From positions 1 through 43,508 of the forward strand of contig LT635931.1 of assembly GCA_900128565.1 (NCBI GenBank): a DNA stretch of 43,508 nt. The letters run 5' to 3'. This document shows positions 1-43,508 of this stretch, one piece after another (positions within the stretch are counted from its first letter, which is position 1; every line of letters starts with the position of its first letter). Source of the stretch: Stramenopiles sp. TOSAG23-6 (Eukaryota). The notes beneath the pieces were generated by a model. That model worked only from the letters and a program-made list of their open reading frames with translations, was not told the origin of the DNA and searched no databases. The position numbers and the translations under genes were made by a program.

Positions 1-81
1 AAAAATATTTCAAAAAAAAATCGTTAGGTACAAAATTTCGTACGAAAAATAAATTAAAAATTGAAAAAAAATAAAACATAC
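1..81 (-). other. Intron of the repeated family (5' part; acceptor outside window)
   Basis: Minus strand reads GTATGTTTTATTTTT...TTCGTACGAAATTTTGTACCTAACG...GAAATATTTTT, the family consensus. Confidence 0.8.
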
Positions 82-1969: not shown

Positions 1970-1976
1970 CTCCTCC
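1970..1976 (-). other. Polypurine tract
   Basis: GGAGGAG on the element sense strand directly abutting the 3' LTR. Confidence 0.65.
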
Positions 1977-5700: not shown

Positions 5701-8700
5701 CATCCAAAATACTCTGGGCACGATTACCATTGCAGATACCAGTCTGTATATCAATATCAGAATAACGCTGCGATTCGAGGACTGCTTTAGCTGCAGGAGA
5801 TAATCTTTGGACATACCCAGGTTCCTTTTCAAATGGAATCAAAGGGTAATTATGCTTCGAGTTGTGGATTGCATCGTTAGGAAGCANCACAAATCCAAGT
5901 TTTTCTCCAGTATTGGTTATCTCGCCACAGGGCTGAAAGGGAAGAAGTTTGAACTGAGAAGACATATATATCGGTTCTGAATCGATTGAATATATCGGCG
6001 AAATGTGTATGGTCTTCAGCAAACAACGACGCTGAAAGTTATAACACAGGAAACTTATGCCATCCTGGATCGGGCGAAGTATGAAAACTTCTTCACCAGT
6101 TGTGTGCAACTTATTGATACCAGGCGTAATAGCACTATATTCACTTTCTGTTAAATCATCTCTTGACGTTCCATTTGGTAGGATCTTTGCTTTTGGCGTA
6201 ATATGGGCAATTGCAATTGTACCAGCTGGGACCATTTGACGCGCGATTATTGAAGGCTTTGGAGGATGTCCATATGCCAATGCATATGCTGAATTACCGC
6301 TTGAATCAATAGGAAAGATATTATGATCATCTCTCGCTTTAAGTAGTATTTCAGGTGCTAAATTCAACGGAATATCTTTATCTAAACATTGAACACGCAC
6401 AGATTTGAATGACACTCCAATAGAATTTTCGACAGGACCTTGGCCAGAACTATTGTAAGGACCATTATCCAGCAGCGCGACACCTTTAGAATGACACTTA
6501 CTCCGGTTCGAGTGTTTCAAACCCTCTTTACAGGAGTCGAAACAGATGAACTTTGGGGGAATTTTTCTGCCGAAACGATTCATATTTATCATGATTGTTT
6601 CGTCTATTACCCGCTGCGTACAAACTTCAGCTTCATGCTTAGATTTCATAAGATAAATGAACCAATATTTCGTTGCAGGACACACGGCATGAAACGAGTA
6701 TATTTCGCCACGTAAACTCGGGACTCGAAAAGGTCCAGCAAGATCACAATAGATGCCAAATACACCAAGGATGATCTCTGAGATTAGTTTCGAATTATAT
6801 AAGGTACGGTTAAACGAATTATGAACACGCGATTTCTTTGCACTTTTGCCTTTACCACATGCATTACACACAAAAGATAACATATCTTCTTTTGAAAACT
6901 TATATTTCTTGATACCAAAGTTTTCGTATGCACCTGAATTTTGCAAGCGCAGAAACTTTTCAACACCAGGATGACCAAGCTGCTTATGAGCCAATGCTGC
7001 CTGTTCGCTTTTCGTCATAACGGACTTCTTTCTGTCTGTTAATGGCAAACCGGATCTACGCATTTTGTCGCCTTTCATAAATTGATCAGAAGGATTTATC
7101 TTCTTTGATTTCATGAAACGAGATGACATAACTGGATAAGCTTCAAGCAAATGTTCATTATCATCATTGACAAGATCCAAAATAATAGTTTCAAACAAGT
7201 ATACTGCTACATCTTCTGGTGACGCATCACATTTTACTTCATTTATTGGAACTACATCTGGGATATCTTTTCTACACAAACGAACTTTTGATGTTTCATC
7301 AAGCAAATTGATTTCATCATTCAGAATATATATTCCACGTTTGGGGCAAGCTTTACCAATAATTACAGAATCTTCAATACTCGAAGCTGCTTTTGGCATT
7401 ACTGATAAATATTCATCAACAACGAATTTGCAGTCGAGTTGCTCTCTTATTCTATTTGCAGACAGCAGAAATAGTTTTGAAGGAAGTTCTGGTGAATACA
7501 GAACATCATTGTATCCATGTACCGTTTTGCCAATCAATTTGATTGGGACCGGCACATTTGATATGCCCAGTACTGCTGGGGGTCCACCAGATCTTATCCA
7601 ACATGGGTCGGAAGGTTTAGGAGGACGGAGCGATGATTCAATGAAAAGCTCACGATTACCAGTAATACTCTCAGCCGCACAAGTGTCAAATAGAACTTTC
7701 GGTGGAGCATCTGGTTGCACCTGATATATCTCAATAATTCTTGAAATATCATATAATTGGGCGCTAAAGGTATTGATGAAATTCCCTGATGCATAGTACA
7801 TGAAATTCTCCGCAAGCTTTTGAATCTTTTCATCAGAAACTGACGAAGTTGGAGGATCCGTGACAATCATCTTTGCTGTACCATCATTAAAATCTGCCGC
7901 AAAGGCTACAGATTTATGAGCTATTGGCTTGTTCCCTGTACGAGGACATGCCAAAGTTTCTCTAATTTCCTTGTACGATGGGAATGAAACACACAAGAAA
8001 GGACATTTGTCCTTTCCATATGGACAACGAATTTGCTCAACACAAAATGGACATTTGTCCCCTTTATTCTTCTTCTCCTCCCAATCTGGATTGAGACGAT
8101 TCAGAATGCACATGGAAGTTAAATGATGCTTTTGACCGCAAATATCGCATTTATTGCTTGATTTGACATTAGGGCAATCTCTTGGAGATTTATTTTTATG
8201 CGTTTTACCACAACGATAGCACTCACCATTTTTCAACGGAACTGTGATTTCACGAAGGACTTTGATAAACTTTGACGTATTTTCAACATTGTTACCACGT
8301 CTAAGTTCATTCGAACGATGAGTCGCAAGTGTATTATTATTCTTTGAATTGGAGTTCTTCTTAGAAGATCCAGACTTAGAATTTTGCATGTCTTTTACCT
8401 GTTTGCTGAGAGAACCAATTTGAGCTTTATAGGCTTCAATTTGTTCACTCGCAGGATTTGGAGCATACAATGGAAGACGACTTGCAATCGCTTTTCCAAA
8501 CATCGATGACATTGTGTCAGATGACCAGGAGTTATATTTCCTAGAAATAACCTGGATTTCATGAATTACGTACGAAAGATGCATCAATGGAAATTGACGC
8601 TTGACCATACAGGAATCTTCGTAGTCACTTTGCTTCAACGCTAAGATGACGGGAAGAATTCGTGGCGCAGTTATACCATTGAGGTATGCAATCATTATTA

Positions 8701-10483
8701 CGGATGCTGGAGTATTTCCTGGAAGGGAAAAATTCAACAGTGGACGAGCTGGTTTTGATTCCAGTGAGTCCAAGTTGATACAATCCAATTCACGATCAGG
8801 TGCATCTGGATTCATTATATTAAGATATAAAGAATAAGATCTACCTGATGCAACCCGACTCATAATGATCGCAAATAATTCAGCACTTGGGGTTTTATCC
8901 ATTTCAACAGAAGGCATAATCTTTTCTGTGACCAAATATGGAATACGATTTCTGAGAAACTCATGCGCATGGTGAGGTATGGGGGATGTATATCCCTTTA
9001 CCTCTGACTCATCAACTTGTAGAAAGGCTGCAGCTAGTTGTTTCCGAATAGTTCCAGGACCACAAGATACACGTCTGGCATTATCAAGATAAACTTTCTT
9101 GGTATCACCATTCGCAGTGGAAAAATTTACAGGTAGATGAAGGCTGTTCGTTAGTTGATCTTTCTTAATCAGCCTATCTAGATTTAGTAATTTATCATAG
9201 TCTACTTTTTGTAAATGACCACTAGCGAAAAACAAATCCAATTCATCACAGAGACGTTTATACCTCTGAGCTTGGCAAGTTAGACGTTCATTAGAGTACA
9301 AATCGAGAAATCTTGTCGTATATCGCAACAAAGATTCTTTATCTTTCTGTTTGATTTGAGTTAATCTTGTTAAAGATTTCGAGTGAGCAAAACCGCATTG
9401 CTGTTCTGCCCAGTTGAGAATTGTCGTCAAGATTTCATATGGCGACATCTTCTGTTGGATTGCTGGATCAATCGGCTTGAAGATTCTTTTCTCAATACTT
9501 GCTTCTATGCGTTCCGGGCATCTTAGCANATTTATTAACGCTTTTACAACCGTTCTCTGATGGTTATAATTCTGAGTATATTCGTCAGAAATACGAACCA
9601 GAGATTTAATTTGATTTCTGCGTGCAGAAACCATTTGTGCGTTTGTGACATAGTAGTTGTACGCTTTAAGTGCGTCATTATACTTGTCATATGTGTCATC
9701 TGAATTATTATCTTCTCCAGGAGACGGAATTTGACCTGAGGTACCACCCGACGTTGAGACATCAGCTGAATTATTAACGTCATTCAATGAACTAGTATTA
9801 TCATTTGTTTGACGATCCTCTTTATAATTAGGGTCTATTTTCTTTGCCTTGAGAATTCGCTTGTCCAATCTTTTAATATTTTTCTTTAAAACAATTTGTT
9901 GGTTTTCATATTTGGTAATCGATAAACCTAGATTAGAGAATTCATCCTTCAACAAAGAGATACGATGAGCAAGCCTCTCAATTTCTTGAATTTGAACTGG
10001 AGTACGAACTGCAGCAAGAATTTGAGATAACTTCTTATGTTCATTCTCAGCATCCTGTCCAGCTGTTTTAACGGCTTCCTGTTGGAAATTGAACGACGTT
10101 ATTTCGTCATTTAACTCCTCTATCTTATCTTCAATATCGTCCTTCTTTTGTGTAAGACTGATGATATATATACGAGATTCTTTAATTTCTCGAATTTTCT
10201 CAAACGCTTTTGGATACATGATTTCCTTCGGCTCTTGGACAGGCGTGACTTCTTGAATTTGTGTGTCACGTAACTGTTGAAGATCTTTTGAAAATTGCAT
10301 CTTGTCAGGGTGATCCAGTAATCTTTCTGTGTCATCAAGTAAATCTAAAGGATTAGATAACTTTGTGGCACGATTAGATTTAATTGACAATTTGGCTGCG
10401 GAAGTACGAATACCTCGTAGCCATGGGACTGAATCAGCAGGTCTGACTAAACGTACTATATTAGATTCTCCTCCTTTAGTCAT
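2735..10483 (-). CDS. Gag-Pol polyprotein, Ty1/copia order (2582 aa)
   Basis: Cys/His knuckles (CYRCGKTH..C, CDICGQKHH..C), protease LFDTCA, integrase HHCC (HKQLGH..CNAC) and DDE (CDLAGPF / FDSCKE / PVEN), RT (KWVYKTK..FKARL, LKSCYGCKQS, YVDD), RNase H (YVDANFA, ESELYAL, EDN, DFFTKPL). Two codons contain N. Confidence 0.95.
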   Translation of the reverse strand: MTKGGESNIVRLVRPADSVPWLRGIRTSAAKLSIKSNRATKLSNPLDLLDDTERLLDHPDKMQFSKDLQQLRDTQIQEVTPVQEPKEIMYPKAFEKIREIKESRIYIISLTQKKDDIEDKIEELNDEITSFNFQQEAVKTAGQDAENEHKKLSQILAAVRTPVQIQEIERLAHRISLLKDEFSNLGLSITKYENQQIVLKKNIKRLDKRILKAKKIDPNYKEDRQTNDNTSSLNDVNNSADVSTSGGTSGQIPSPGEDNNSDDTYDKYNDALKAYNYYVTNAQMVSARRNQIKSLVRISDEYTQNYNHQRTVVKALINXLRCPERIEASIEKRIFKPIDPAIQQKMSPYEILTTILNWAEQQCGFAHSKSLTRLTQIKQKDKESLLRYTTRFLDLYSNERLTCQAQRYKRLCDELDLFFASGHLQKVDYDKLLNLDRLIKKDQLTNSLHLPVNFSTANGDTKKVYLDNARRVSCGPGTIRKQLAAAFLQVDESEVKGYTSPIPHHAHEFLRNRIPYLVTEKIMPSVEMDKTPSAELFAIIMSRVASGRSYSLYLNIMNPDAPDRELDCINLDSLESKPARPLLNFSLPGNTPASVIMIAYLNGITAPRILPVILALKQSDYEDSCMVKRQFPLMHLSYVIHEIQVISRKYNSWSSDTMSSMFGKAIASRLPLYAPNPASEQIEAYKAQIGSLSKQVKDMQNSKSGSSKKNSNSKNNNTLATHRSNELRRGNNVENTSKFIKVLREITVPLKNGECYRCGKTHKNKSPRDCPNVKSSNKCDICGQKHHLTSMCILNRLNPDWEEKKNKGDKCPFCVEQIRCPYGKDKCPFLCVSFPSYKEIRETLACPRTGNKPIAHKSVAFAADFNDGTAKMIVTDPPTSSVSDEKIQKLAENFMYYASGNFINTFSAQLYDISRIIEIYQVQPDAPPKVLFDTCAAESITGNRELFIESSLRPPKPSDPCWIRSGGPPAVLGISNVPVPIKLIGKTVHGYNDVLYSPELPSKLFLLSANRIREQLDCKFVVDEYLSVMPKAASSIEDSVIIGKACPKRGIYILNDEINLLDETSKVRLCRKDIPDVVPINEVKCDASPEDVAVYLFETIILDLVNDDNEHLLEAYPVMSSRFMKSKKINPSDQFMKGDKMRRSGLPLTDRKKSVMTKSEQAALAHKQLGHPGVEKFLRLQNSGAYENFGIKKYKFSKEDMLSFVCNACGKGKSAKKSRVHNSFNRTLYNSKLISEIILGVFGIYCDLAGPFRVPSLRGEIYSFHAVCPATKYWFIYLMKSKHEAEVCTQRVIDETIMINMNRFGRKIPPKFICFDSCKEGLKHSNRSKCHSKGVALLDNGPYNSSGQGPVENSIGVSFKSVRVQCLDKDIPLNLAPEILLKARDDHNIFPIDSSGNSAYALAYGHPPKPSIIARQMVPAGTIAIAHITPKAKILPNGTSRDDLTESEYSAITPGINKLHTTGEEVFILRPIQDGISFLCYNFQRRCLLKTIHISPIYSIDSEPIYMSSQFKLLPFQPCGEITNTGEKLGFVXLPNDAIHNSKHNYPLIPFEKEPGYVQRLSPAAKAVLESQRYSDIDIQTGICNGNRAQSILDGHLNGFKSPSTKMHPADSLEIRSLIEPYTNPYNKSDGIVKHPSGLKPKISYYKPIYTDGSTKPKTSTTDMAIISFDHSFEKLLKSSVIIQKWVRRHLAKHSIGQLRRERHPNVQLGSLQPRPDIESRRIKAREGASPEFRDEVRSPVYHATKMAEDKAAKLLLDLLSRKHPNVDQRILLDQIDLMRRTGTFPQVPHDVIKAMDVTYPVSKALSDAISNELDSNSVSQHVNHIDPSTCGGENAESGGVNIDSGGVNVQSNNTSNGDISDDNSNVSNDDISEVETIESDADESETIQPCRRSPRFANSESNRCRRSKRIREKKLLESNLSLLADYHLKDTSIEAFFSANASYTTESDEINHLFMAYSVFNKSPNDDLLDTIDASISEVYQLHLQQAPEQNGIKYEDTQKRKFLDYSKVDLRQHVTPVFERDFNHMPDIERQYWSVAKDDEQKGMGYNGVFKLDYHPESYKRLLGTKWVYKTKFKDDSSIEQFKARLTILGNLQRIDLDYKETFSPVSRFASLRALFAFGAYNNLSKLMEDVSQAFLLPEMDIQLNVKIPRGTGVEVLKELAKDNPEYLDVLNNKEFNASHWSYKLLKSCYGCKQSSMLWHKMLSEWLMSRGWVPTKSDPCIYKLTQNGAVLFCAIYVDDVIVLFDKKDSNIAKEHVRAFGSKFTSTVAYGEEANMFLGITIRTCEDGSWILSQENFINKMITDFEKRMNGKLKESDLPHLPNVRLNKFDKENDVQDNSFCIPFREAVGKLTWLSNTVRPDIAYATLALQQHLVAQTSYHIAALKLVLGYLKRTAKLGLIYGRKCEKVRPFDGGVRLYIGTKGIYVEIYVDANFAGDVNPKKYKSVMGGAVFMFGSLVKWMSRRTAVVCLSSFESELYALTEGARDAMWARDVYHDLTGEMHAPVPVYEDNMAALLNAARECNHRAARHIGVRVAFLREAVKHNVVDVMRVESKDNIGDFFTKPLDKVTFERLRKFFMDFA

Positions 10484-10771
10484 GATTGGCTAAATGGTTA
10501 TGAAGGAGTAAATATTATAGGAAAAACTGTCTCTCAGGAGTTCCTGGTATACAGCTGATGAGAATAGACTCCTAAAAATGGAGATTATCCTCTTAGAACA
10601 AAACTTTGGTGTTTTCGTCAAAACACAAAGTTAATGCCGAAATCCGTGAAAGTAAAGTCACGGAAACGATACGTTTAAAAACGACAGTTACAGAAAATTA
10701 ACAGACCAGTAAGCTAGAATGTTAAGATTAGTCTACTATTATCAATGCACAATGAATGAAAGGGTAGAGAC

Positions 10772-10783
10772 CGACTGTTAATC
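10772..10783 (-). other. Putative primer-binding site complementary to the tRNA-Asn(GUU) anticodon arm
   Basis: No TGG follows the 5' LTR; the + strand reads CGACTGTTAATC abutting the LTR, the anticodon stem-loop sequence of tRNA-Asn. Confidence 0.6.
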
Positions 10784-11158
10784 TAGTAAAATACCGTTAG
10801 ATTTCTTACGAAATCTGATATTAAATTGGATTGAAATTGGTTAAAAGAGACTAGTAACCGATTAGTAAAAATAGGATCAGTAAATAATTACCTCTGGTAG
10901 AGTGTACGTATTATGGCCAGTAATACGTATAGTTAACCAGAGTGAACAAAATAAATTGAACTTGTAATCAAATATAGATCTTTTATTGAAAACTAAAGTT
11001 AAGAGACAAAGCGCACAACAGAAACAGAAACAGCAAGACAAAGAGACAAATAAAGAGCACGAGGTACCCTAAGGTAACTGGCTTTAACTCTGACTCTAAT
11101 TGCTTACTTCTTGCGCAAACCTGTCTTAAATATCACAAAATACCGTTGTATTTTGCCT
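10784..11158 (-). repeat. 5' LTR (375 bp)
   Basis: Direct repeat of 1595-1969. Confidence 0.95.
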
Positions 11159-11232: not shown

Positions 11233-13715
11233 ATGGATAGTAATGGCGGCGTGGATGAAGAAGGAGACGTAGTCGATACAATTGAAACAAACCCAGAAAT
11301 TTCTGAAGAAGAAAGTGTACAGAATAAAAATAGTAAGGAAAGGATTGATAGTGAGGTTGATTTCATTGTTAACAATATGGAGTTCGAAGATGCAACGCAG
11401 GAGTTTGACGATACAAATGAGAAAGAAAAAATCCTTTCAGGTATTCGTGATGGTATATTCAAAGCCATTGAGGAATTAAATATGTCGGATCTTGTACAAT
11501 TAACAAATCAAGCCAGAGAGCGAGGAGATGAGGTAATTAATATGGGAGATGAAATTGGTGATACTTCACTTCACCGCGCCGCTGGTTCTGGTTCACTTGA
11601 TATGATTTGTTTTCTTGTATCAGCTGGAGCGGATATGGGTGCCACAAATGCAAATGATGACACACCGCTTCATTATGCTTGCATGTTTGTTCCAGCTGAA
11701 GACGATCAAATGGTTGAACATTTTATGATGGTTGAAGCAATGTTCGCTGCTGGCGCAGCTTCTTATTGGGATTCTAAAAACAAAGAAGGCGAGACTCCAC
11801 AGTCATATGCCACAGACGCATTCCCTCCGAATCTTTATGAGAAGTTAGTCGCCAAGTCTCAAGAACATGCATTTATTGTTACGTATCATGAAGATTGTAT
11901 GCTTAAAGCAAAAAAAAATGTATGTTTTTTTTTTTTCAAATTCGATTTTTTTTTCGTACGAAATTTTGTACCTAACGACTTTTTTTTGAAATATTTTTCC
12001 AAAATACATGGCTTCTCTGGAAGGAAAACTAAAAGATAATTCAGCTTTGCCTTTACCAACAACTGAAAGCAATGCGAAGTTTAATAAGCCAAGGACAATA
12101 GGTCGGTTGCAGTGGCTAAGACGTCAATTAAAGAATTTATATATTACACCAGCTGCATGTATGTTTTATTTTTTTTCAATTTCGAATTTACTTTTCATAC
12201 GAAAATTTGTACCTAACGATATTTTTTTTGAAATATTTTTCCAAAGTACATTATTCAGCGCAATGGATGCAAATAAAGATGGTATGATTTCTTTGCCAGA
12301 GTTTGTGTCTGGCTTGGCAGAGGTTGGAATTTGTGTCAATGATTTCCAGTCTAAGCAACTCTTTATGTACATTTTCATTTTCAATTTCAATTTTTGTTTC
12401 TTCATAGTTTTTTATTTTTCGTGGATAATTTTGTACCGAACAAAAAAAGAAATTTTATCTAAAAATTGTTTTCGCTAATGTTTTGTAACTCAAAAAAAAA
12501 TATTCTTCACAATAAAGTATGATCGACCCGGATCGTGACTCAAAGATTAGTTGGACTGAACTTGAATCCTGTTTATCTCAAAATGTTGAAGAAGATGGTG
12601 CTCGAGAGTTGTTGGCAGATGAATTAGAGAAGAAACAAATTGCAGGTGTAGATGTTGAAGAGGAAGAATTAAAGACAAATTATATGGAAATGCTACATTT
12701 AAATGAAAAGGACCCAGAAGAGGTTGAAGAGAGGCGCGATATACAAAGATCTTCAGCTGTATTTCAAGAGATAAAAGCAGCTATTGAGCAAAACAAAACT
12801 CTTTTTGGTCGACAACTTCGAAGTGGAAAAGATCTTTTTGAGAGTATGGATCAAGATGGTGATGGGCATCTTACATATGAAGAGTTTACGAATGGTTTGA
12901 AACAAATGAATCTAGGTTTGAGCGATGAACAAATAAAGGAAGTAATTAATCAACTTGATGTAGACAAAGATGGTGAAATTGAATTTGAAGAGTTGTTTGA
13001 GGTACTTCAAATAGATGAAGATGATTTTAATCCTGTAAAACAAACTGAAAAACGTATTTTGGAAGTAAAAAAAAAAGTTCAAGAACAGGAGAAAGCCATC
13101 ACTCATTTGTGTGGATCTTTTGCGTTCAACAAAAGTGCGCGCGTAATAGCTTCACATATCGAGAAAAGAAAGAAATTAGAAATTCGAATGACTCGACAGA
13201 GAGCCCGGATTCGTCGTAAGTTTGAAAATCGACGTAGTCAAAGACGCAGTAAATGGTCACAGGTGTTGTCTCGATCTCCATATGGCGTTGATCAACATGC
13301 GGAACATAAGATTATAATGAATGCAAATAAAGAAAGAAATCGGTTAGAAGCAAGATTAAAAAAACGCCGCGAAAAAAAGCGTCTGAAATGTCTCGGTAAA
13401 CTCATTGTTGAAACATTGACAAATGCCGACCAATTAGGCGAAGTTCGAAGGGAAAGTCGCGAATTAGCTTTAGAAGAATCTCGTTTAAAGGCAATGGTAG
13501 ACCTAGAAAAAGCTCGAAGGAGAGGAATGAATAGTAAATACTACCGAGAAAAATTAAGTAGACAAGAAATTCGAGCTCGCATTCAAAGTAAAGAAGCTCA
13601 AAATAACGCTGATAGTCCAGAGATGTTGCTGAAGAATATTAACTTTAACCCCAGTGAAGAGAAGTTATCTGATGAAAATCCTATTACATTCATCGAAAGA
13701 AGTAATGAAGAATAG
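11233..13715 (+). CDS. Ankyrin-repeat, four-EF-hand, coiled-coil protein; exons approx. 11233-11919, 12010-12158, 12252-12366, 12518-13715
   Basis: Ankyrin motifs GDTSLHRAA and DDTPLHYAC; EF loops DANKDGMISLPE, DPDRDSKISWTE, DQDGDGHLTYEE, DVDKDGEIEFEE. The first junction is 1 nt out of frame as sequenced (next to an A9 run), so the one-gene model is uncertain. Confidence 0.65.
11920..12009 (+). other. GT-AT family intron (90 nt)
   Basis: AAT|GTATGTTTT...TTCGTACGAAATTTTGTACCTAAC...CCAAAATACAT|GG; full consensus, but the downstream frame is off by one. Confidence 0.65.
12159..12251 (+). other. GT-AT intron (93 nt)
   Basis: GCAT|GTATGT...TTTGTACCTAAC...CCAAAGTACAT|TA gives PAALFSAMD before the EF loop; the AG 5 nt upstream would frameshift. 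Confidence 0.8.
12367..12517 (+). other. Family-derived intron with GT-AG ends (151 nt)
   Basis: AT|GTACATTTT...TTTTGTACCGAAC...CACAATAAAG|T gives LFIMIDPD, placing Phe at the canonical -4 position of the EF-hand. Confidence 0.7.
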
Positions 13716-13813: not shown

Positions 13814-15072
13814 TTATCCATACCATCCATTGAATGTATTATTTTGAACAATACTGTTTTGCTGCCTTTTGATATTATATGAAGGGTCATCAGTTTTCAG
13901 TTCATATCGGCATAGTGGACAGGTATTTGTTTTATTTAACCATTTCATAATACAACCCGAATGATATATGTGATAGCATGGTAGTCTAGTACATTCTTTA
14001 TCTATAAAATCATCTTGACAAATGTTTTGTACATAAATATTTTTTTTTGTACAATTTTTTTTGTTAAGTACAAAATTTTCATAGAAAAAAAATGTAAGGT
14101 AAAAAACAAATTTAATTTTGAAAAACGTACATTGGACACATCACTTTTTCTTCTTTATTTCGTGTTATGTTGACTGAAATATTAATACTAGTATTAATAT
14201 TAGTTGTAGTACTATTTTTAGGTGCATTTATATCAATTAGGTCTACAGACTCTACACATTTTGTTTCTTGGCATGCTGCGACATTAGGGTTAGGGTTTGA
14301 CAGTAATTTTTGAAGTCTTTTTGAAGCATCTTTTTGAATCATTAAAGCAGGTATTGATGTAGAGGCATTATTTGAATTAGTCATTATATAAGGCCAAACA
14401 GTTTGATTTTGTCCAACAACAACACCAATCGCACCATGTATTGTGAAAAAATATTTTTTTGTAGTAAAATGTTTTTGTTAGGTACAAATTTTGGTACGAA
14501 AAAAAAAAAGTAAAAAAAAATTGAAAACGTACATAACTTTGTAAACGTATAATTTTTTCAACAAATGAACAACCCCCCCTTTCAACGAAAGCTATTACAC
14601 CTCTAATGGTAGAACTATTGATTAATTCAGTTGCAGCATTGAAAGGATTCGCCATAACTATTTTGGGGTATTGTGTTTTACCCAGTGGCCAATCAGGACC
14701 AAACCGAGCAGCTAAACAAGAAATTTCACCAACGATACCTGAAACACTCAGAGATAGCTGTTGCAACCACGGAGATTTTTTATCAACTATAGACCGTTCT
14801 AAAGATGCACACACAGATTTGGACGCTGCGGGTCGGCTGCTAAAGTGATGAAACTCCTCTGTAAAATTCCGGAAAAAATCTAAATCATCTACTGAAGCTG
14901 TTGCTGTACTGTTGGAGACTTCACTATCTCCAGGAAGGACCACCGACAAGTCAGCTCCACAAATTTCACACACTGGGTCACTTGCATAATATCGAACAGA
15001 CTCAAGACAATCTCCACACCATCGAAAATTTGAATTTCTTCTTGCGGGTGGTAAAGGAGGATTTGGTATCAT
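13814..15072 (-). CDS. RING-H2 E3 ubiquitin ligase with N-terminal zinc ribbon and PA domain; exons 15072-14533, 14435-14131, 14021-13814
   Basis: WCGDC..CEICG ribbon; PA motif IAFVERGGCSFVEKIIRLQSY|GAIGVVV; RING CPI|CQDD..LPCYHIYHSGCIMKWL..TCPLCR. Confidence 0.9.
14022..14130 (-). other. GT-AT intron (109 nt)
   Basis: CCA AT|GTACGTTTT...TTTTGTACTTAAC...CAAAACAT|T TGT restores the RING CxxC exactly; no usable AG. Confidence 0.9.
14436..14532 (-). other. GT-AT intron (97 nt)
   Basis: TAT|GTACGTTTT...TTTGTACCTAAC...CACAATACAT|GGT GCG restores frame and the PA-domain GA motif. Confidence 0.9.
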
Positions 15073-15311: not shown

Positions 15312-16188
15312 TTATTTACTAGATGGTCCACCACAGAGAGCCATTACATTAAAATGAAGATTTTTAGGATCTCTCGACATAAAATCGTTTCGGATTATTT
15401 TCGCAGCATCTGAAAGTATGAATTTTGGAAAAATATTTGAAATGTTTTTTCGTTAGGTACAAAATTTCGTACGAAAAAATTCTTCGAATTTAAAAAAAAA
15501 AAAAAACATACATGTCACTGCATTTACCATGAGGAACTGGAAAATCCTGACATCCATCAAATTCTACAAGTATACCATTAATACAGACAAATACAATAAA
15601 ATGAGCATCCACTCTTTCATCTCTGTCAGGGGCTGCTGTTTGAGAAAGTGATTCGTCAGAGGCACTTTCTTCACTTACTTCATGAATTGGTTTTGCATCA
15701 GCCAACAATTGTCCTTTCTGTGAAGGCGACTCCTTCTGGTGCGAATCAATGAAATCATGTAATATTCCTGGAGCTAATTCGAAATTTGGATTATATAAAT
15801 GGTTATTAGAGAGTGCATGTACCATACCAATTGTACCACATGCATTTCCAAAACAAGACAGTTGTTTAACGAAGAAAGTTTTGCTTCCTAAAGTTTTATC
15901 AATGCTTGAGTTATTGCGATACTCAGATCGTCGAGGGCCACTAATATTCTTTGAAGGATACAATAAACACACAGCAACACAAGGTTTGGGCACCATACAG
16001 AGTAGCTCAGGATCTAGTCCGAAAACGTCAACCCACTCGAATGAAGATTGCATACCCATGCGAGTACAAAAGCTGTTTACTAAATCTGGATTGCTTTCAA
16101 GAGGAAGCCATCTCGGATTAGTGCTCTTCATATCATTATTTGAAGATTTGGCTGATGCAACTGCAATATTATCTTTATCACTCTCCAT
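15312..16188 (-). CDS. Ubiquitin C-terminal hydrolase, UCH-L3-like (peptidase C12); exons 16188-15512, 15417-15312
   Basis: WLPLESNP, QLSCFGNACGTIG, HFIVFV..LVEFDG, and spliced C-terminus DAAKII..FMSRDP.NLHFNVMAL. Confidence 0.92.
15418..15511 (-). other. GT-AT intron (94 nt)
   Basis: GAC AT|GTATGTTTT...TTCGTACGAAATTTTGTACCTAAC...CCAAAATTCAT|A CTT restores frame; the next AG, 8 nt downstream, would frameshift. Confidence 0.85.
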
Positions 16189-16354: not shown

Positions 16355-18677
16355 ATGTCATGCAAAGAGGGAATTGAAAAACTTGTAATTCTTGACGCCG
16401 GTGCACAGTATGCCAAGGTAATTGATCGACGTGTTCGCGAACTTGCTGTGCATTCCACAATCTTGCCTCTGGAAACTCCAGCTGACAAGTTGAAAGCTGA
16501 TGGATACAAAGCAATTATTATTTCTGGTGGACCAGAGAGCGTGTACGCAGAAAATGCCCCTAAATACGACCCTGGGCTGTTTGAATTGGGTATACCAATA
16601 TTCGGTATATGTTATGGAATGCAATTATTAAATAAGGTCCATGGAGGTTCTGTATTAAAAAAAAGTGAACGGGAAGATGGTGTTTTCAAAATACACACCA
16701 CTGGAAAATCTTTACTATTTGATAGTTTAGATGTAACTCAGACAGTATTGCTTACGCATGGTGACTCGGTATCAATGGTTGCTCCAGGTTTTCGTTGTGT
16801 GGGGAAATCGTCCAGCGGGATTGTGTCTGCTATAGACTCTTTTGAAAAAAAAATGTATGGCGTTCAATTTCACCCGGAAGTAGATTTGACTGTTCATGGC
16901 AAAGAAATGTTTTCTAATTTTTTATTCAAAGTTGCTGGATTTTCAGGTAATTTCACAATGGTTTCTAGAAAAGATGCAGCAATAAAATTAATCAGAGAAA
17001 CTGTAGGTGATGCCTCTGTTCTAACTCTTGTGAGTGGAGGTGTTGATTCTACAGTTTGTACCGCTTTGCTTCGTGAAGCTTTACCACACGAAAAAATATT
17101 TGCATTACATTTAGATTCTGGATTTATGCGGAAAAATGAAAGTTCTAATGTAAAACTGGCATTGGAAGCAATAGGCGTTAATTTAAAGGTGGTTGATGCT
17201 ACTGAAACATTTGCTAATGCTACAACTGAAATTCGAGGAAAGAAAACGAAACGTCTCTGTGAAACCATGTACGTTTTCAAAATTTCAAAATCAAATTTTT
17301 TTTTTTTCGTACCAAAATTTGTACCTAACAAAAAAAATCAAATTTTTGATTTTTTTTCACAATACATTGACCCGGAAGCAAAACGTAAAATTATTGGTGA
17401 TACTTTTATGACAATTAGTGATGTGGAAGCACGAAGATTTGGTTTAGACCCTAAAAAATGTTTTCTAGCACAAGGAACATTACGTCCAGACTTAATCGAA
17501 TCTGCGTCGAAAATTGCTTCTGGTTCTGGAAATGCACATTGCATTAAAACGCATCACAATGACACACAGTTGGTACGTGCTCTTCGCGAGCAAGGTAGAA
17601 TTATTGAGCCACTAAAAGATTATCATAAGGATGAGGTAAGAGCTTTGGGAATGGATTTAGGTTTATCTGAGTCTTTAGTATGGCGTCAACCTTTCCCTGG
17701 CCCTGTACGTTTTTCGTAATGAATTTCAAGTATATGTTTTTGTTTTTATACAAAATTTTATACCTAACAAAAAAAATGTACTAAAAAAAAAATATATTTT
17801 TTCATAGAACATGGACTAGCTATTAGAATAATTTGTGCCGATAAACCCTTCCTTCCTGCTATTCAAGACGATACCAATGGTCCTATAAAGATTGCAAAAA
17901 AGTTGCAGAAAGTTGTGGAAACTGTCTGTTCTCGTTTTAGCACAAGTCAAACATTTACTGGTAATAATGTATATTTTATTTTTTTCAATTTCGAATTTCG
18001 AATTTATTTTTTTTCGTACGAAATTTTATACCTAACAAATTTTATGAAAAAAAATATTTTTCACAATACATACAGAAAATAAAATAAAGAGACAAAAGAC
18101 ATTGCCATCATCTGTTACCGATGTTCAAGCGATTCTATTACCTTGTAGATCTGTTGGGGTTCAAGGAGATTGTCGTTCCTATAAGTCACTTTGTGCTCTC
18201 AGTTGGTCTGGTAAGAGTTCAATTAATTGGAAACTTTTACTTGAAATTGCAAGAGAAATTCCTAAATTGATACACCATGTAAACCGAGTAGTTTTTCTAT
18301 TTGGAGATTCAATGATGAATGGGGTGTCTTCAACAATAACTCCAACACGTCTGGAAGAACCTGTTATTAATATGCTTCGTGAGGCAGATGCAATCGTGAA
18401 TGAGTTGCTATTGAAGCACAAACTGACAAGAAAATTAAGTCAAGTGCCAGTCATTTTATTTCCAGCGGATTTTGGGCTCCCAGGTAAAAGAAGTATTGCC
18501 ATTCGAACATTTATTACTAGAGATTTTATGACTGGGTTGCCAGCGCAGCCAGGAAAAGACATTCAGATTGCTATTATTGAAGAAATGGCTCGTCGAATAT
18601 TGACTGAGGTTGAAGGCATTGGTCGTGTAACCTATGATCTTACTTCAAAACCTCCCGCAACAACAGAGTGGGAATAA
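16355..18677 (+). CDS. GMPS: GMP synthase (glutamine-hydrolysing); exons 16355-17268, 17368-17704, 17813-17968, 18072-18677
   Basis: ILDAGAQY, GICYGMQ, QFHPEV, SGGVDS, PEAKRKIIGDTF, QGTLRPDLIES, IKTHHN, QPFPGP|GLAIR, SVGVQGD.RSY, YDLTSKPPATTEWE. Confidence 0.96.
17269..17367 (+). other. GT-AT intron (99 nt, in frame and stop-free)
   Basis: ACC AT|GTACGTTTT...TTTGTACCTAAC...CACAATACAT|T GAC CCG gives LCETIDPEAKRK and removes an F/K/N-rich insert; the intron contains no AG at all. Confidence 0.88.
17705..17812 (+). other. GT-AT intron (108 nt)
   Basis: CCT|GTACGTTTT...TTTTATACCTAAC...CATAGAACAT|GGA restores the invariant PFPGPGLAIR; the TAG 5 nt upstream would frameshift. Confidence 0.92.
17969..18071 (+). 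other. GT-AT intron (103 nt); a canonical alternative 17961-18075 is also in frame
   Basis: AAT|GTATATTTT...TTCGTACGAAATTTTATACCTAAC...CACAATACAT|ACA matches the family consensus. Confidence 0.7.
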
Positions 18678-19502: not shown

Positions 19503-20374
19503 TTACTTTTTGATCTTACGGAGGTAAAAAGCAAGTTCAGGTCCTTCAAGAATGTATCCATCAGCACGTCCAGACTGTCCTGGACGAGATGAGATGCAAG
19601 CCAAAAGGCGACCATTGTTGAATTGATCAGCAAGGTTTTCATCAATTTCACGAGTTTTGCAATTCTTTGCTTGACGTCTAAGAACCTTGTTAGATTTTTT
19701 CTTGTCGGCTTCATCCTCGCCCTGTAGTGTAAAATGAGTATAGTAGTGGTATTGATGGGGCCGACACCATCAATTTATCAATGAGTAAAACGAATCAAAA
19801 AACAAAAAGTAATAGTATTGAGGTGAAAAAGAGGGGGGGGATAATTAGTAGAACCAAGATAAGTGCTACAGTCGACTTTCAAGGGTTTGACTTGAAATGG
19901 CTGTACACGTAAAATATCATGATGTAACAAAATGATATACTAAAGCTCTAATATACAATACATTGGATAATTAATACGTACATCTTTCTTCTTAAGTCCA
20001 GCCTTTTTGTTGAGCTCGATCCCGTAGTGGGTTTTGTACCAACTTCTGTAAGGTGCACTGTCAACTTGGACGATGCAGTTCTTTACAAGAGTCTTGGTAC
20101 GGACAAGCTCATTGTTAGAAGCATTGTAGACAACATTGAGAATACGAGCTTTACGGGTGCAGACTTCGGATCCCCAGGAAAAGTTACCGGTCTCAAGACG
20201 AAGAGCACGGAATTTCTTGTTTCCACCACGGGTGCGGACAGTGTGAACACGCTTAGCACCAATACGAGTATTAGCAGCTGGGCGTCCAAGCTCAAACTTC
20301 CTCTTCTTTACATGAATAACACGTTTACCACCAGTGTTACGGCGTTTGTGGCGTGAGTCGCGAGAGATACCCAT
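19503..20374 (-). CDS. RPS8: 40S ribosomal protein S8 (eS8); exons 20374-19982, 19721-19503
   Basis: [36 protein letters not shown]; exon 2 has [20 protein letters not shown]. Confidence 0.97.
19722..19981 (-). other. Canonical GT-AG intron (260 nt)
   Basis: GAT|GTACGT...TACTCAT..ACACTACAG|GGC, phase 0; lacks the TTTTGTACCTAAC motif. Confidence 0.9.
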
Positions 20375-21697: not shown

Positions 21698-22671
21698 ATG
21701 GAAGAAGACTTGGTTAGCCGGGATTTATTCAAAGTTGGAAAAAGTGCTATAGATTTATGTGCTTCCGTTGAACGTATTCAAAGAGGCCTTTTTCTTCCTT
21801 TCTGGAATCATGTCGCACGTGTTGTACTTCCTGTAAAAATTCGTGGTTTCCCCTCAAAATTTATTGCAGCTGAGCCAAACAATACAACAACTGGACATCC
21901 GGTGTATTTAATTGAGGGTTGTAGTCTAGTTGCAGTATTTTTATTGAAAGCTCGTGATCACCAGAGGCATTCACAATATACTTGTCCTATCGCTGGACCA
22001 ACTCAGCATGGATTTCGAGTGAAGTTTGATCCTGTCGGGGGGTTCTTGACATATCATAGTGATGATCCTCGTTTTGCAGAAAAACATATAGTCTTGTGTA
22101 TATTTCCACAAAATTATTGGCAAAGTGGAGACGTTGTATCTGAAATGCGTCGCTCTGGTATTAACTCCGCATCAAGTCCGAATTGGGGTACGTTTTCATC
22201 ATAAATTTATTTTTTTCATACCAAATCCAAAAAGGTTTTATACCTAACAAATTTCACTTTTTTGCAATATTTTCTCAAAACACATGTCCCATTCTAGATG
22301 ACTTTAGTGCTGTACAGGCGAGACTTCACCGTTTACAGGAGGAAGTTGTACCCTCTTTAAAATATTGGTTATTTCAACCTCATCAATTAACTCATGCTAT
22401 ACCTACACTTCTTACAAGCCGTATTCTTGTTGAAATTGAGAAAGCAGATGACTCAATTGCCCGTTCAGCCAATTGGGGCGTATTTAAAGCCATGGCGAAT
22501 AATTTTATAAAGGATTCTCTTAATTCTTCATCGCTGTCAGATAGTTCAGATAATGTTGAAAATTTTAATTCGAATGGTGATTCTAAACTTCCATCCCTTC
22601 AGAAAATCACAGGACACTACAATGCGATGTGTCAAAATATTTTTGAAGATTATAAAGAAAAATGCAAATAG
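21698..22671 (+). CDS. Probable Mediator subunit MED8-like protein; exons 21698-22187, 22286-22671
   Basis: Spliced PNWGPILDDFSAVQARL..L..WLFQP..AIPTLLTSRILVEIE resembles the MED8 core (W..IL.QFS...V.P...LP.LL.SK..PE.E) from memory. Confidence 0.55.
22188..22285 (+). other. GT-AT intron (98 nt)
   Basis: TGG G|GTACGTTTT...TTTTATACCTAAC...CAAAACACAT|GT CCC joins two ORFs in frame. Confidence 0.8.
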
Positions 22672-22894: not shown

Positions 22895-24933
22895 AGGATC
22901 CCAAAGAATTTCAAAACCTCTCAGAAAAGGAATATATTGTGAAAAAATATTTTGTTTTGGTTTACAAAAATTCATTAGGTACAAAATTTTCTATAAAAAA
23001 AATTAAAATTTCAAAATTGAAAACGTACACACCAGATCTGGACATTCCGCTTGACTGCTTCATTTCCGCTGTTTCAATTTCTTTCCTTAATAAATCGTCG
23101 TCATCAATTGTATTAAAAACATCTTCTAATCCCTCTATATTCTCTTTTGTTTCCGAGTGTTGAGGCAAAGCTTCAACAATTTCGTCATTTTTATCTGTTA
23201 ATCCGTCTATATTCTCTTTTGTTTCCGAGTGTTGAGGCCAAGCTTCAACAATTTCGTCACTTTTATTTCTCAGAGCAATGGTTTGGTCAACTGTTAGATA
23301 TTTTGCAGCTGCTCTTGCCGCCTTAATAGCTATCCCAATATTACCATTACTACTATTCTGCAAGATATCCGAATCAAGTATTGGAGCTATTGGATCTATA
23401 GCACAATGTACTAAGTCTTCAGTCATATTGGGCATCAAATCAGCTGCAACAGCTGGTGATGAATTTACTTCAATTAATGATACTTGAAAATCAGGTTCGG
23501 CACTTACCATGAGATCAAATCCAAATAAATGAAAACTGGAATAGGACACAAATTCAGCATTTTCCATCATATTTCTTGCTGCAAGTAGTGTATGCACTAC
23601 AATAGCCTTAATTTGAGGATATATTTTTGTATAAAAACTATTTGTTTTGCCATGTGTAGCAATCATCCAATTATCAAAATCAGCCCACCACATTTCGTTT
23701 GTAGGTTCATGTATTGTGAAGAAATATTTCAAAAAAAAAATTTTAATTTGTTAGGTACGAAATTTCGTACGAAAACAAAATTAAATTAGAAATTCATATA
23801 AAACGTACATATTTTCCATATTCTGGATGTTCCTTTGCAATACAGTGATTTGATAAATGTGTAAAACGATCGTTCAAGTTATCTAAGTTATATGGTGTAG
23901 CAGCCGTTCGAAGTACACCTTCACGATAGAGACAAATTCTATAATCGCTTGTCAATAAAACCCATGCATTGTAAAATATATTTAAGTCTGAAATCAGTTA
24001 GGTACAAAATTTCGTACGAAACCAAAAACAAAAAAAATGAAATTGAAATTGAAATGAAGACACACATGCTCTAATGTCAAACTTTCTATTACCAACAACA
24101 GTCAACGGTCGTTCTAAATATTTTTGAACAACAAATCGGTCTTTTAAACCTCGTTCTGTTGAAGCTCTTAATAAGGCTATGATTTCAGAAATATCACTGG
24201 ATAAAACAATGTAAAGTGAAAAATATGTCGCGAAAAAATCGTTAGGTACAGAATGTACTATGAAAAATATAAAAATACAAAAATAAAACTGAAATGATTA
24301 ATGATTAATGAAAATGTACATGTCATCACCACAACCGCCGGCGCTAGGTTTCACAATCCAAATATTCTTTTTATCACTATTCTGGGATTCTATATTGAAT
24401 CTATCGCGTAAGTCTGATAACTCCTTTTCATTTGGATGCTCAGAATTATAAACTATAGCAAAAGGCATTATTTTTGATATATCATACCCTTCATCAAGAC
24501 AATAATCACGAAGTGTTATCGTTTGTTGAGCTTTATCACAAATTGTACGCCAGCCACGGCAAAAATTGACAAGCATTTTGGATCCCCCGTCACCATTACG
24601 TGATCGGACACCGCCTAATACTTTAAAATCGAATCCTTTTCCACACCAACCACCAATTAAAAGATCCAGTCCGCCAATGCATTCTTTATCCTCCTCTTCA
24701 CGCCAACCACCACGATCACGAAGATAAATTGCAACACTGCGATAGATTGATATCGTATGTTTGTACCAGTAATAAGGCCTTAATGATAGCTTCTTATCTA
24801 CCATTGCGGTAAGTGTTTCAGATTTTTTTACTCTTTCGGCGGCCTGCTTCTCAGAAATAGCTAACATGTGAGCTTTCCAATAGGCCATTTCCTCCTCTGG
24901 AGTCGAAAAGGTTGCAGGAATCTCTTTGTCCAT
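22844..24933 (-). CDS. TTL: Tubulin-tyrosine ligase (TTL/TTLL family); exons 24933-24320, 24208-24066, 23963-23809, 23708-23029, 22931-22844
   Basis: WIVKPSAGGCGDDI, VVQKYLERPL..RKFDIRAWVL, LYREGVLRTA, HLSNHCI..YGKYEPTNEM, FHLFGFDLM, LIEVNSSPA; closest in my recollection to TTL proper. Confidence 0.88.
22932..23028 (-). other. GT-AT intron (97 nt)
   Basis: GT|GTACGTTTT...TTTTGTACCTAAT...CACAATATAT|T CCT opens a last exon containing GFEILW. Confidence 0.72.
23127..23266 (-). repeat. 72-bp in-frame tandem duplication within TTL
   Basis: DEIVEAWPQHSETKENIDGL / DEIVEALPQHSETKENIEGL. Confidence 0.9.
23709..23808 (-). other. GT-AT intron (100 nt)
   Basis: TAT|GTACGTTTT...TTCGTACGAAATTTCGTACCTAAC...CACAATACAT|GAA gives YGKYEPTNEM. 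Confidence 0.9.
23964..24065 (-). other. GT-AT intron (102 nt)
   Basis: GCA T|GTGTGT...TTCGTACGAAATTTTGTACCTAAC...TACAATGCAT|GG gives KFDIRAWVL. Confidence 0.9.
24209..24319 (-). other. GT-AT intron (111 nt)
   Basis: GAC AT|GTACATTTT...TTCTGTACCTAAC...CACTTTACAT|T GTT gives GCGDDIVL. Confidence 0.85.
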
Positions 24934-41400: not shown

Positions 41401-43508
41401 GACTTCACCTGTCCAATTTATATCTCCTACTCCTCGCCATCGAATATCAATAGATCCACCAGAGCTACGAGCATTTGCAACGCGCACTGTTGCTTCACAT
41501 TTTGTAATTTCATTACCATCTGTATCAATATCATATACACGCAATGAGACTTCTGGACGCCGCAATCGACTCAATGATAATTTCGCTGTTTCATTTGGCC
41601 ATGATGGTGACCAACTCTTTAGTATTTTAGATGTTTCTACCGCTTTGGAACATGGTAATGGTGTTGTAAACCCCTTTGTAGCTCGTGCCATTTTCTGTTC
41701 CCAGGGCTCGCCTTCTTCACCAGCAACAAAACGCACAAAAGTCATGCGATCATCCACATTATTAGGTCCATCAAGATTAGTTACTTCATTGATAGTCATA
41801 TGTATTGATGTCGTTTTTGATTGCTTCATTTGATTGCCACTTTCAACCTTTGTGATTATCGCATCTACTAAATTATCTGAACGAGTTTTGTTTAACATTG
41901 TTTGTTCACGCGAAGCAAATGCTCGTTTAAACATTTTGTATGCCTGTCGACGTCTTATGACATTCTGTATTATCGTTGCTGCATTTGTTTGAGAATTACC
42001 AAGTGATATGACAGAAATTGCATTTTTCAAAGCAATATCTGTGGGTCTACTAGAAAAAGTAATAATTCTACGCTGTTTTGCACTTGACGATACAATTCTT
42101 TTAATGTCTGAAAAAGGCAATTCATCAAGGCTATTTCCAGATATGAGCATAAATGAGTTTTCCTTTGAAAGTGTAGGGTCACATTTGATTGAAGTTATAT
42201 ACATCCCAGCTTCGACTCCTTGAGATTCTAATGGACCAGGCATTCCATTCGAATTAAGTGTAAATGAAGCAATTTTTGCCCCAATGCCACCAAAGCCTTG
42301 TTCCATTTCGCAAAATAAGGACCCAGGATTAACTTTAACAACTATTGTTCGTCGCCTTATGCGCCCTAATTCTTCAAGCGTTATTTTTTTATCTCCTTGA
42401 ATGAGAGGGCGTTCCCATGAAATTAGCAGCGAGCCAGCCATTTTACCTGCGAGCGTGGCCATGGGAATACTGACAATACCATTAGAAGTACGCGTATTTG
42501 CTACCTCGAGCACACCATGGCACAGAATCTTTTCTGATACATTATCAAATACATCTTCTACACCACGCTCAATTATACAAAAGGTAATTTCCGGATTAAC
42601 TAAACTATTAATAGTGATCCATTTGGAAGTACCCCATATTTGATTCGAAGCTTTTGGGCGAGTAGACCAAGATGCTTCATGAGTGTACATCGGAGAGTCT
42701 CTAATATGTGTGTTTTGTTTAGTTCCAAGTCTTTTATATTTAGTTTCCCAAGTTTCACCTATTTCTCCTGATCTTACTCTAATAAATATTTTACCCTTAG
42801 TTGACCTTTTTGGTGATGAAATCTCAACAGACTTCAAAGCAGTGATTTTTATATCTGAACCTAATACCATTGGTATGTGTGTTCTATTATCTCTACCACC
42901 GAGAGACACATCATGACTGTATTCTTTTGAATGCTGTTGTGCAAGCCATTTTCGTACCGATTTTTGCAGTATTTTACATGCGTTCTTGCGTCTATTTCCC
43001 TTCAAAATTTTCAACACTTCAACTTTTATAGCTGCTTCCGATGGTCGATTACTAAATGTTAGACACCTAGTTAATTTCTGTTTAACTTTGAGTATTAAAA
43101 TAACATCATCATACATGGCATCTCCAACATCGGTGTCATCAATATCTATGAGATACATGTATGGTGAAACAATATTTCAAAAAGTTGTTTTTTTTTGTTA
43201 AAATACAAAATTTTGTAGAAAACAAAATTTAGATGAAAATATCCATTGCAAAACGTACATGTTTGGAAGTATACCAGATTTTTCAAGTGGCCCTGGTCGA
43301 CCATCAACGAGTTTGAAATAAACAAGTCTTACACCAACTCCGCCAAACCCCGGAGCAAATGCAGCGCCAATTGGCCCAGGCTCGCAGACAACTTTAACTT
43401 TTTTACGATTTACCACTGATTTAATACGCGATTTTTGTGCTTGGCCCATCACCCGCTCCCAATGTATTTTAACAAGACCAGACTTTTGTTTTTGGTGCTG
43501 AGAGAGGA
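32485..43508 (-). CDS. Giant (>3600 aa) scaffold with repeated C2-like/PDZ-like/IQ modules, IQ array, three SH3, PDZ, coiled coil and EF-hand; 5'-partial; exons >43508-43259 and 43156-32485
   Basis: PGxLG PDZ-like starts, many IQxxxRG motifs, SH3 motifs (Y.A...DE..L..G....DGWWEG...G.FP.N) three times, EF loop DTDNTGLISSDQ. The upstream exon is open to the window edge. Confidence 0.88.
38140..38520 (-). repeat. 69-bp tandem array encoding 23-aa IQ motifs (about 6 units)
   Basis: AATKLQAHQRGKVQRRKTLQKHK repeated with high DNA identity. Confidence 0.92.
43157..43258 (-). other. GT-AT intron (102 nt)
   Basis: AAC AT|GTACGTTTT...TTTTGTATTTTAAC...CACCATACAT|G TAT gives GILPNMYL, matching the protein's own repeats GVLPGMYM and GVEVGMYL. 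Confidence 0.88.

Follow-up and report, generated by a model that had tools for sequence, protein, structure and literature searches.

The stretch of DNA analysed here, referred to as the window, is contig C446 (43,508 nt) of an assembly of Stramenopiles sp. TOSAG23-6, which amounts to 21.1 Mb in 6,236 contigs, is incomplete and contains duplicated contigs. On its minus strand the window carries a UCH-L3 gene that is split by an apparent intron with GT..AT ends. The first exon is 100% identical to a database protein whose source label is MAST-3 marine stramenopiles. The features of the gene, in window coordinates, are as follows.

15512..16188, minus strand: UCH-L3 exon 1 (Peptidase_C12)
15512..15513, minus strand: exon-end AT, the left copy of a 2-bp repeat, predicted to pair with U1 positions 9-10
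15503..15511, minus strand: donor GTATGTTTT, from the sequence and the family consensus
15418..15511, minus strand: family copy, a GT..AT intron of 94 nt in phase 2, from homologue scoring
15466..15475, no strand assigned: palindrome TTCGTACGAA, from the sequence
15452..15459, minus strand: branch-type motif TACCTAAC, the CTAAC core of which would pair with the standard U2 sequence
15418..15420, minus strand: acceptor CAT, the right copy of the 2-bp repeat
15312..15417, minus strand: UCH-L3 exon 2 with the stop codon, giving a 260-aa product

All AT and AG ends between 15251 and 15440 were scored against 52 homologues. The CAT end had the highest mean score (448.9), followed by the next AT (445.8), the best AG (404.6) and the unspliced sequence (396.7). 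The GT..AT product could be aligned without gaps to P0136 and P0148, two of the three homologues compared pairwise. An AG found 8 nt past the CAT acceptor leads into a different frame. The public model of this gene (P0128) uses the downstream AG, and its protein is shorter at the junction, where the homologues align gaplessly to the GT..AT product. From these alignments the public model appears to be mis-spliced.

A family of similar introns

A sequence-only reading of the window had noticed the same internal layout in introns of unrelated genes. The shared layout is real, and the UCH-L3 intron is one of 16 copies in the window. The family profile called 14 of these, one of which is cut by the window start, and the remaining two lie at 24209-24319 and 43157-43258. 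The other copies are listed below together with one intron that is not a member; the letters before and after the slash are the last two bases of the exon and of the intron, respectively.

1..81, minus strand: family copy truncated by the window start (profile)
11920..12009, plus strand: family copy, AT/AT (profile)
12159..12251, plus strand: family copy, AT/AT (profile)
12367..12520, plus strand: long, diverged copy, in frame with its end at AG 12517 or AT 12520
14022..14130, minus strand: family copy, AT/AT (profile)
14436..14532, minus strand: family copy, AT/AT (profile)
17269..17367, plus strand: family copy in the GMP synthase gene, AT/AT
17705..17812, plus strand: family copy in the GMP synthase gene, CT/AT, skipping a TAG 5 nt before its own end (homology)
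17969..18071, plus strand: family copy in the GMP synthase gene, AT/AT, in frame, its end left ambiguous by homology
19722..19981, minus strand: non-member, a GT..AG intron of 260 nt, excision of which gives a single open 205-aa frame
22188..22285, plus strand: family copy, GG/AT; a register shifted by 2 meets a stop
22932..23028, minus strand: family copy, GT/AT (profile)
23709..23808, minus strand: family copy, AT/AT, subfamily C (profile)
23964..24065, minus strand: family copy, AT/AT, GCAT repeated (profile)
24209..24319, minus strand: family copy, AT/AT
43157..43258, minus strand: family copy, AT/AT, ACATGTA repeated

The longer junction repeats at 23964-24065 (GCAT) and 43157-43258 (ACATGTA) had already been pointed out in the sequence-only reading and are present as described. 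The non-member lies in a gene that we take to encode ribosomal protein S8, so AG acceptors also exist in this genome.

A 3,563-codon frame (32485-43176) is devoid of family copies throughout its 10.7 kb, although the average density would predict about three. An LTR retrotransposon, which we presume to be of the Ty1/copia type from its protein motifs, occupies 1595-11158, with a 2,584-codon frame (2735-10489, minus strand) between two stretches that share 375 identical bases. It, too, is free of family copies and probably postdates the intron bursts. A search for Rfam families in the window gave no hits.

A scan of the whole genome, as the sequence-only reading had suggested, found the strict branch-to-end pattern at 3,722 places versus 1 in the reversed control. 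With the family profile, 30 sources gave 125 calls on the real sequence and none on the same sources reversed. The copy density in unbiased stretches (0.30/kb) corresponds to roughly 6,000-6,300 copies in the assembly, duplicates counted. The properties of the family were taken from a sample of 815 kb in 80 stretches, 20 of which were picked around known hits. Score cut-offs and de-duplication left 217 unique copies from 380 candidates anchored on the branch motif. The genome-wide row counts given below include duplicated contigs.

The sampled copies have a median length of 98 nt, the donor consensus GTAYGTTTT and, in 164 of 217 cases, the branch motif GTACCTAAC, on which the sample itself was anchored. 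The perfect palindrome TTCGTACGAA is present in 67 of the 217; in the window it occurs once in each of the six copies for which it had been claimed, at 37, 11953, 15466, 18013, 23764 and 24011. The intron phases are nearly even (79/66/63, n = 208). Almost all copies (145/152) lie inside long sense frames, and several of the seven outside are mis-calls; long frames cover ≈88% of the DNA, leaving ≈12% outside. The lengths of exons between copies peak at 100-200 nt (n = 124). A periodicity indicative of nucleosome phasing was not significant (n = 117; p 0.01-0.15 according to the null used, the maximum lying at the edge of the range). Some copies directly follow one another head to tail without an intervening exon, as in L058 near 2550-2740, and with 7 rows genome-wide there is no excess of such dimers.

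The core of the element had no matches in viral contigs. A metagenome scan returned 80 loci, with proteins that are just 35-48% identical, and these were left out of any comparison of intron positions. Public sequencing runs containing the region exist, the RNA runs at shares of at most 0.18. The assembly also includes rRNA genes that match bacterial-type models (L102, G000:C137).

With the last two exon bases included, typical copies had been described as bounded by an inverted repeat, ATGTA...TACAT. Among the 217 copies, complementarity is 83-89% at positions 1-3 and 96% at position 7, about half at positions 4 and 6 and 1% at position 5. A near-perfect repeat thus spans 3 bp only, with position 5 hardly ever complementary. 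The UCH-L3 copy terminates in TTCAT and not TACAT, and its own inverted repeat is thus imperfect.

Diagnostic sites at the 5' and 3' ends are linked (Fisher p 2e-10 and 6e-17, n = 217), in agreement with the proposal of one family of copied elements. Copies in unrelated genes reach ∼96% identity from end to end. A neighbour with at least 90% identity was found for 67 of the 217 copies and one with at least 95% for 11, while no two copies are identical. The flanks of the top near-identical pairs shown are unrelated. Subfamily A has a median nearest-neighbour identity of 0.91 and intact repeats in 71 of 76 copies, and subfamily B has 0.81 and 41 of 69. These divergences indicate that subfamily A is younger than subfamily B and that the invasion was not one burst, contrary to the single old burst suggested before. 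Similarity confined to splice signals, with no subfamilies, had been named as part of the outcome that would speak against a mobile family. Since subfamilies do exist, the copies were mobile and are more than selected signals.

Excision, register and the junction repeat

Excision was modelled by removing everything from the GT up to and including the two bases that follow the terminal TAC. Among 194 testable copies, exact excision leaves an open sense frame in 184, compared with 68 at an offset of +1, 50 at an offset of +2 and 49 in the antisense direction. It is in frame in all 15 complete window copies, and the frame is also restored in 18/18 copies with the same non-AT dinucleotide at both junctions (GT, TT ends etc.). 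In the GMP synthase gene only GT..AT removal of 17705-17812 yields PFPGP/GLAIR, which is identical in all five homologues shown. The third intron of the same gene (17969-18071) lies in a variable region, and there the family end ranks fifth among 280 in-frame combinations. P0002 (78%) spans the GMP synthase junctions and was not used for any inference on intron absence.

The register could be compared in 31 listed copies, in which either the last exon base is other than T or an exon AT is combined with a non-AT intron end. A shifted register gives stops in three of these copies, the GT register in none. The intron ends of the 217 copies are AT (181), TT (10), GT (8), AG (8) and others (10), and the acceptor is CAT in 156. 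In 53 of 184 copies the stretch from the branch site to the end contains an AG, and the acceptor is thus not just the first AG met. AG appears still to work as an acceptor, judging from the eight copies that end in AG and from the intron at 19722-19981. Removal of the GT..AT introns by the spliceosome, which is common to our preferred explanation and to the first two alternatives discussed below, is in our view very probable.

An ab initio search for non-family introns was too noisy for counting. AG/GTAAGT is not enriched (8/243), and ordinary introns therefore look scarce. Two candidate GT-AG introns, in L021 near 6181 (plus strand) and in L065 near 2924 (counted on the minus strand), have exons ending in AAG and standard branch sites. 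Their pairing with the altered U1 described below is poorer.

The AT at the junction had been proposed to be duplicated, with the duplicate serving as acceptor. Of the 15 complete window copies, three follow CT, GG and GT instead of AT. The proposal is otherwise borne out: the repeat is exactly 2 bp and specific to the locus, and its right-hand copy is the acceptor. Identical non-AT flanks were counted 19 times in the 217 copies, versus a permutation mean of 1.8 and a maximum of 8 in 10,000 permutations. Strong locus specificity is restricted to positions -2 and -1; position -3 (75 vs 73.5) is not locus-specific. Genome-wide, the rows for exon and intron end number 1,372 for AT/AT, 12 for AT/GT, 91 for GT/AT, 57 for GT/GT and 77 for TT/TT. 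A GT intron end is thus seen in 57/148 rows after exon GT and in 12/1,384 after exon AT. The difference between GT/AT (91 rows) and AT/GT (12 rows) suggests a preference for AT at the acceptor. With its 2-bp junction repeat the family gives a positive result in the locus-specific duplication test that the available text of the 2022 introner survey describes (10.1101/2022.06.06.494994).

U1 and the rest of the spliceosome

The only U1 found (E 7.5e-12; 54.1 bits, Rfam cut-off 69.5; Sm site present) has the 5' end AAACGUACAUG. Compared with the start of the Rfam consensus, AUACUUACCUG, it is changed at positions 2, 5 and 9, and it is exactly complementary to CAT/GTACGTTT (11/11 pairs; the slash marks the exon-intron junction). 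The median duplex over 216 donors is -9.6 kcal/mol with this U1, -1.9 with the Rfam-consensus end and -6.6 when position 9 is set to C. The computed duplex of this U1 is better than that of the consensus end in 215 of the 216 donors and better than that of the position-9-C version in 205. The Rfam search for U1 returned the variant only, on two duplicate contigs. The standard U1 10-mer has 24 occurrences versus 21 for a control, and it is possible that a second, standard U1 is absent from the incomplete assembly.

Because the U1 of this genome is complementary to CAT/GTACGTTT, the exon-end AT and the donor are also selected signals. Insertion and selected splicing signals had been set against each other in the sequence-only reading; each holds, and the two are not mutually exclusive. 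By its sequence the exon-end AT would be a relic of insertion and, at the same time, a signal readable by U1. In fission yeast, changes in U1 can reportedly suppress 3' splice-site mutations (work of Reich et al. from 1992), and this prompted the idea that positions 9-11 of the present U1 (AUG) could pair with the CAT acceptor as well as with the exon end. GT and TT ends restore frames too, so such pairing at the acceptor cannot be a strict requirement.

The branch-pairing region of U2, the U5 loop and the ACAGAGA box of U6 are all standard. No U11 or U12 was found at E ≤ 1 in the incomplete assembly. A 450-aa segment of Prp8, which we assume to include the alpha-finger, is gapless against human Prp8 and nearly identical to it, and a Prp8 change was rejected for this segment.

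U5, U2, U1 and U4 follow one another on the same strand, head to tail, in a 640-bp cluster, with gaps of 2, 23 and 5 nt (L033:9-645, G000:C1146; duplicate C6122), and may be made as a single precursor transcript. One U2AF65-like gene was recognised among two genes opened from nine hits (L208:664-2628, G000:C433). Its product has an RS-like region, two RRM1-looking domains and a C-terminal UHM, with no RRM2-like domain evident. Among 16 CCCH hits no U2AF35 was recognised by eye.

Spread of the family and known systems

Our preferred explanation is that the copies represent a non-autonomous, MITE-like DNA element, GTA..TAC, of ∼96 bp; the short inverted ends and the 2-bp repeat suggest a MITE. 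The element would have inserted into coding sequence and created a 2-bp target repeat, mostly AT but also GT and TT. The major (U2) spliceosome would then remove the element together with the right-hand repeat and leave an exact mRNA, which would be the reason why sense copies survive. The donor would be read by the changed 5' end of U1, AAACGUACAUG, and the CTAAC branch site by the standard U2. The 3' end might be set by position, ∼38 nt past the branch site and at a fixed terminal motif, with YAT preferred and AG dispensable. Splicing, the function of U1, the choice of acceptor and the cut-and-paste movement are all deduced from the DNA, and for the whole chain, including a duplication made by a transposase, our confidence is evenly divided.

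The autonomous copy with a transposase that might be expected from the sequence-only reading was not found among the five enzyme families searched. No partner transposase with GTA..TAC ends turned up among the five Harbinger-type and two Tc1/IS630-type hits, with no matching ends seen at L199 and the two DDE_3 loci. YqaJ, serine recombinase (PF00239 resolvase) and tyrosine recombinase gave no hits in the incomplete assembly. The Harbinger-type element in L200 (G000:C2432) was rejected as a partner, its one available end, judged by the Harbinger end pattern (PMC4482050), being TTA/GGCCGG and unlike GTA..TAC. The element has a transposase and a second frame in convergent orientation, with a short, internally deleted family copy between both frames; the end of this copy coincides with the stop codon of the second frame.

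The transposase-made target duplication that had been proposed is thus not established, as no partner enzyme was found and the GT/GT copies are concentrated in one subfamily. This subfamily, C, is defined by the donor followed by ATATGAATTTC. Counted by eye, with one of the search patterns looser than the others, it makes up 28/57 GT/GT and 14/77 TT/TT rows, 0/91 GT/AT rows and at most 24 of the ∼1,372 AT/AT rows. By eye and with duplicate contigs dropped, 21 of 24 GT-ended copies of subfamily C follow exon GT and 22 of 22 AT-ended copies follow AT. The +4 base, also by eye, is T in 19/21 GT/GT, 4/22 AT/AT and 4/12 TT/TT copies (chi-square p 6e-6). The concentration of GT/GT in subfamily C may mean that the junction dinucleotide is inherited; such a pattern is not expected if the duplication comes purely from the target. 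The shortness of the inverted repeat also speaks against the preferred explanation.

The same splicing could be combined with another way of moving. An end-joined circle with the junction TAC-NT-GTA (for NT = AT, the palindrome TACATGTA) would carry the core dinucleotide and recombine into a matching dinucleotide, as proposed for IS607, or circles of cDNA would do so by microhomology. A crossover anywhere in the shared letters would then give a perfect intron. Subfamily C copies that land after their own end dinucleotide, with a +4 base that tracks the junction, point in this direction. So do the copies with a broken repeat, in which the next exon begins with GT in 20/52 cases versus 21/165 in the others, and the donor deviations, which equal the next exon in 19/43 cases where 10.9 are expected. 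However, neither a serine nor a tyrosine recombinase is found in the assembly, and 63/77 TT/TT and 29/57 GT/GT rows fall outside subfamily C. Nearest neighbours do not share non-AT ends beyond expectation (2 vs 1.05, p 0.29, 217-copy sample), and head-to-tail joins are rare (7 rows). Subfamily C, counted in part with the looser pattern, may also just have moved with a relaxed choice of target. We consider the carried core possible but less likely than a transposase-made duplication.

More speculative is a joint reading, to which we give a low probability. A mobile intron would have taken over an almost intron-free genome, a change of U1 positions 9-11 from CUG to AUG would let U1 recognise the exon end as well as the CAT acceptor and replace the AG rule, and core-matched recombination of an end-joined intermediate would make each sense insertion a perfect intron.

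The rarity of copies outside coding frames is explained by neither DNA model, except via selection in a frame-dense genome. The near-exclusive location in sense coding sequence (145/152) would fit reverse splicing into CAT/G sites that match the genome's own U1, with fixation via cDNA and the repeat as a proto-splice site. The flank consensus, C35 A77 T90 / G56, likewise mirrors the usual exon-flank pattern MAG/G with G changed to T, and fits U1. Yet the intron end that reverse splicing inserts is fixed, which leaves GT and TT ends after the same exon letters unexplained, and we regard this route as improbable. In the available text of the 2022 survey the RNA model is also tied to families without duplications and inverted repeats (10.1101/2022.06.06.494994).

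It is very unlikely that the copies are removed other than as spliceosomal GT..AT introns, be it as AT-AC minor introns, by use of a nearby AG, or at the level of structure or DNA. The repeat makes the register ambiguous in 165/217 copies, and P0128 takes a downstream AG, but the register tests favour GT..NT and the first AG past the branch site keeps the frame in just 48/184 copies. P0128 is also shorter at a junction where homologues are gapless against the GT..AT product. A fold joining the ends is no better than shuffles in 5/5 copies (z -0.06 to -1.36), U11 and U12 were not found, and the donor and branch signals, which are strand-specific, fit the snRNAs. A U12-type intron was rejected on the same negative search of the incomplete assembly and on the donor, GTAYGTTTT instead of the U12-type consensus RTATCCTT. 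That old, unrelated introns converged by selection on splicing signals alone is hardly credible and already contradicted for most copies, for although donor and exon end do fit U1 and GT/AT outnumbers AT/GT, it conflicts with the end-to-end identity of ∼96% in unrelated genes, the linked 5' and 3' sites, subfamilies of different age, locus-specific non-AT repeats and near-even phases.

AG at intron ends is among the most conserved rules in eukaryotes. A second lineage, unrelated to Fritillaria, here seems to drop AG yet keep GT donors, and its U1 is changed at precisely the place that lies opposite the last bases of the exon. With this pair of U1 and intron, nature offers a way to test whether the acceptor is defined with the help of U1, and why exon ends and acceptors look alike. 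Families of this kind would escape surveys and gene finders built on AG or AC ends.

A literature search on GT-AT introns in stramenopiles and MAST-3, with most subscription papers outside its range, gave no report of this family, and a comparative paper on MAST leaves introns unmentioned in its main text. The 2025 introner survey, the available text of which gives AG and AC as expected 3' sites (PMC12130899), has no MAST entry in the 12 of 14 supplementary files that were word-searched. According to the available text of the 2022 survey, its inputs include uncultured stramenopile assemblies (10.1101/2022.06.06.494994), and the family is possibly listed in its family tables. The parts of the U1 and Fritillaria literature compared contain no precedent for the change at position 9 of U1.

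In the available parts of two other atypical systems, Entamoeba (U1 AACAAAC) and Mastigamoeba balamuthi (ACGUAC), U1 is likewise matched to an atypical donor, and the ACGUAC core is common to M. balamuthi and the U1 found here. No change at positions 9-11, link to a mobile family or non-AG ends are described in those parts (10.1101/2022.06.08.495308). Among mobile elements, the portions consulted of the work on ISL2EU report the same 2-bp AT duplication, with the target A/AT/T, ends that are usually GG and YqaJ partners (PMC4482050), whereas the target here is approximately C/AT/G, the ends are GTA..TAC and there is no YqaJ. The IS607 serine transposases, in the sections available, also have a two-base overlap between short inverted ends and need a target that offers a matching dinucleotide, but their core is GG (PMC4058570); here it is AT, the element is a spliceosomal intron, and no serine recombinase was found.

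The introns of Fritillaria borealis and F. pellucida are alike in being transposon-derived and U2-spliced, with the minor spliceosome absent and a motif repeated at the junctions, and 34% and 44% of them, respectively, have a 3' AT (PMC13326754, available text). The same text differs from our case in that introns beginning with AG form the commonest classes, a YAY triplet is repeated, the 5' end of U1 is strictly conserved and U2AF is duplicated. Here we see GT donors, a 2-bp repeat, one dominant family and a changed U1, in an unrelated lineage. A Fritillaria-type intron was therefore rejected, on the GT donors, the absence of locus specificity at -3 and the changed U1; the 3' AT acceptor derived from a junction repeat is a shared feature. 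GT-AT is mentioned in the literature consulted in part as a rare minor-intron subtype. From its sequence, the present family would belong neither to the minor class nor to the Fritillaria class.

The closest resemblance is to introners. In the available parts of the work on Micromonas pusilla IE1 and Chrysochromulina sp. there are likewise thousands of look-alike short introns, in which the element brings the donor, the duplicated target gives the acceptor and the mRNA length is unchanged (PMC11282704; 10.1101/2022.06.06.494994; PMC12130899). The repeat is 3-4 bp in these sources, with AG in the IE1 example, while it is 2 bp here with AT, GT or TT as acceptor. Judged by its sequence the family works like an introner and behaves as one in the tests that gave a clear outcome (similar introns in unrelated genes, locus-specific junction repeat), and it departs from ordinary U2 introns in the AG test.
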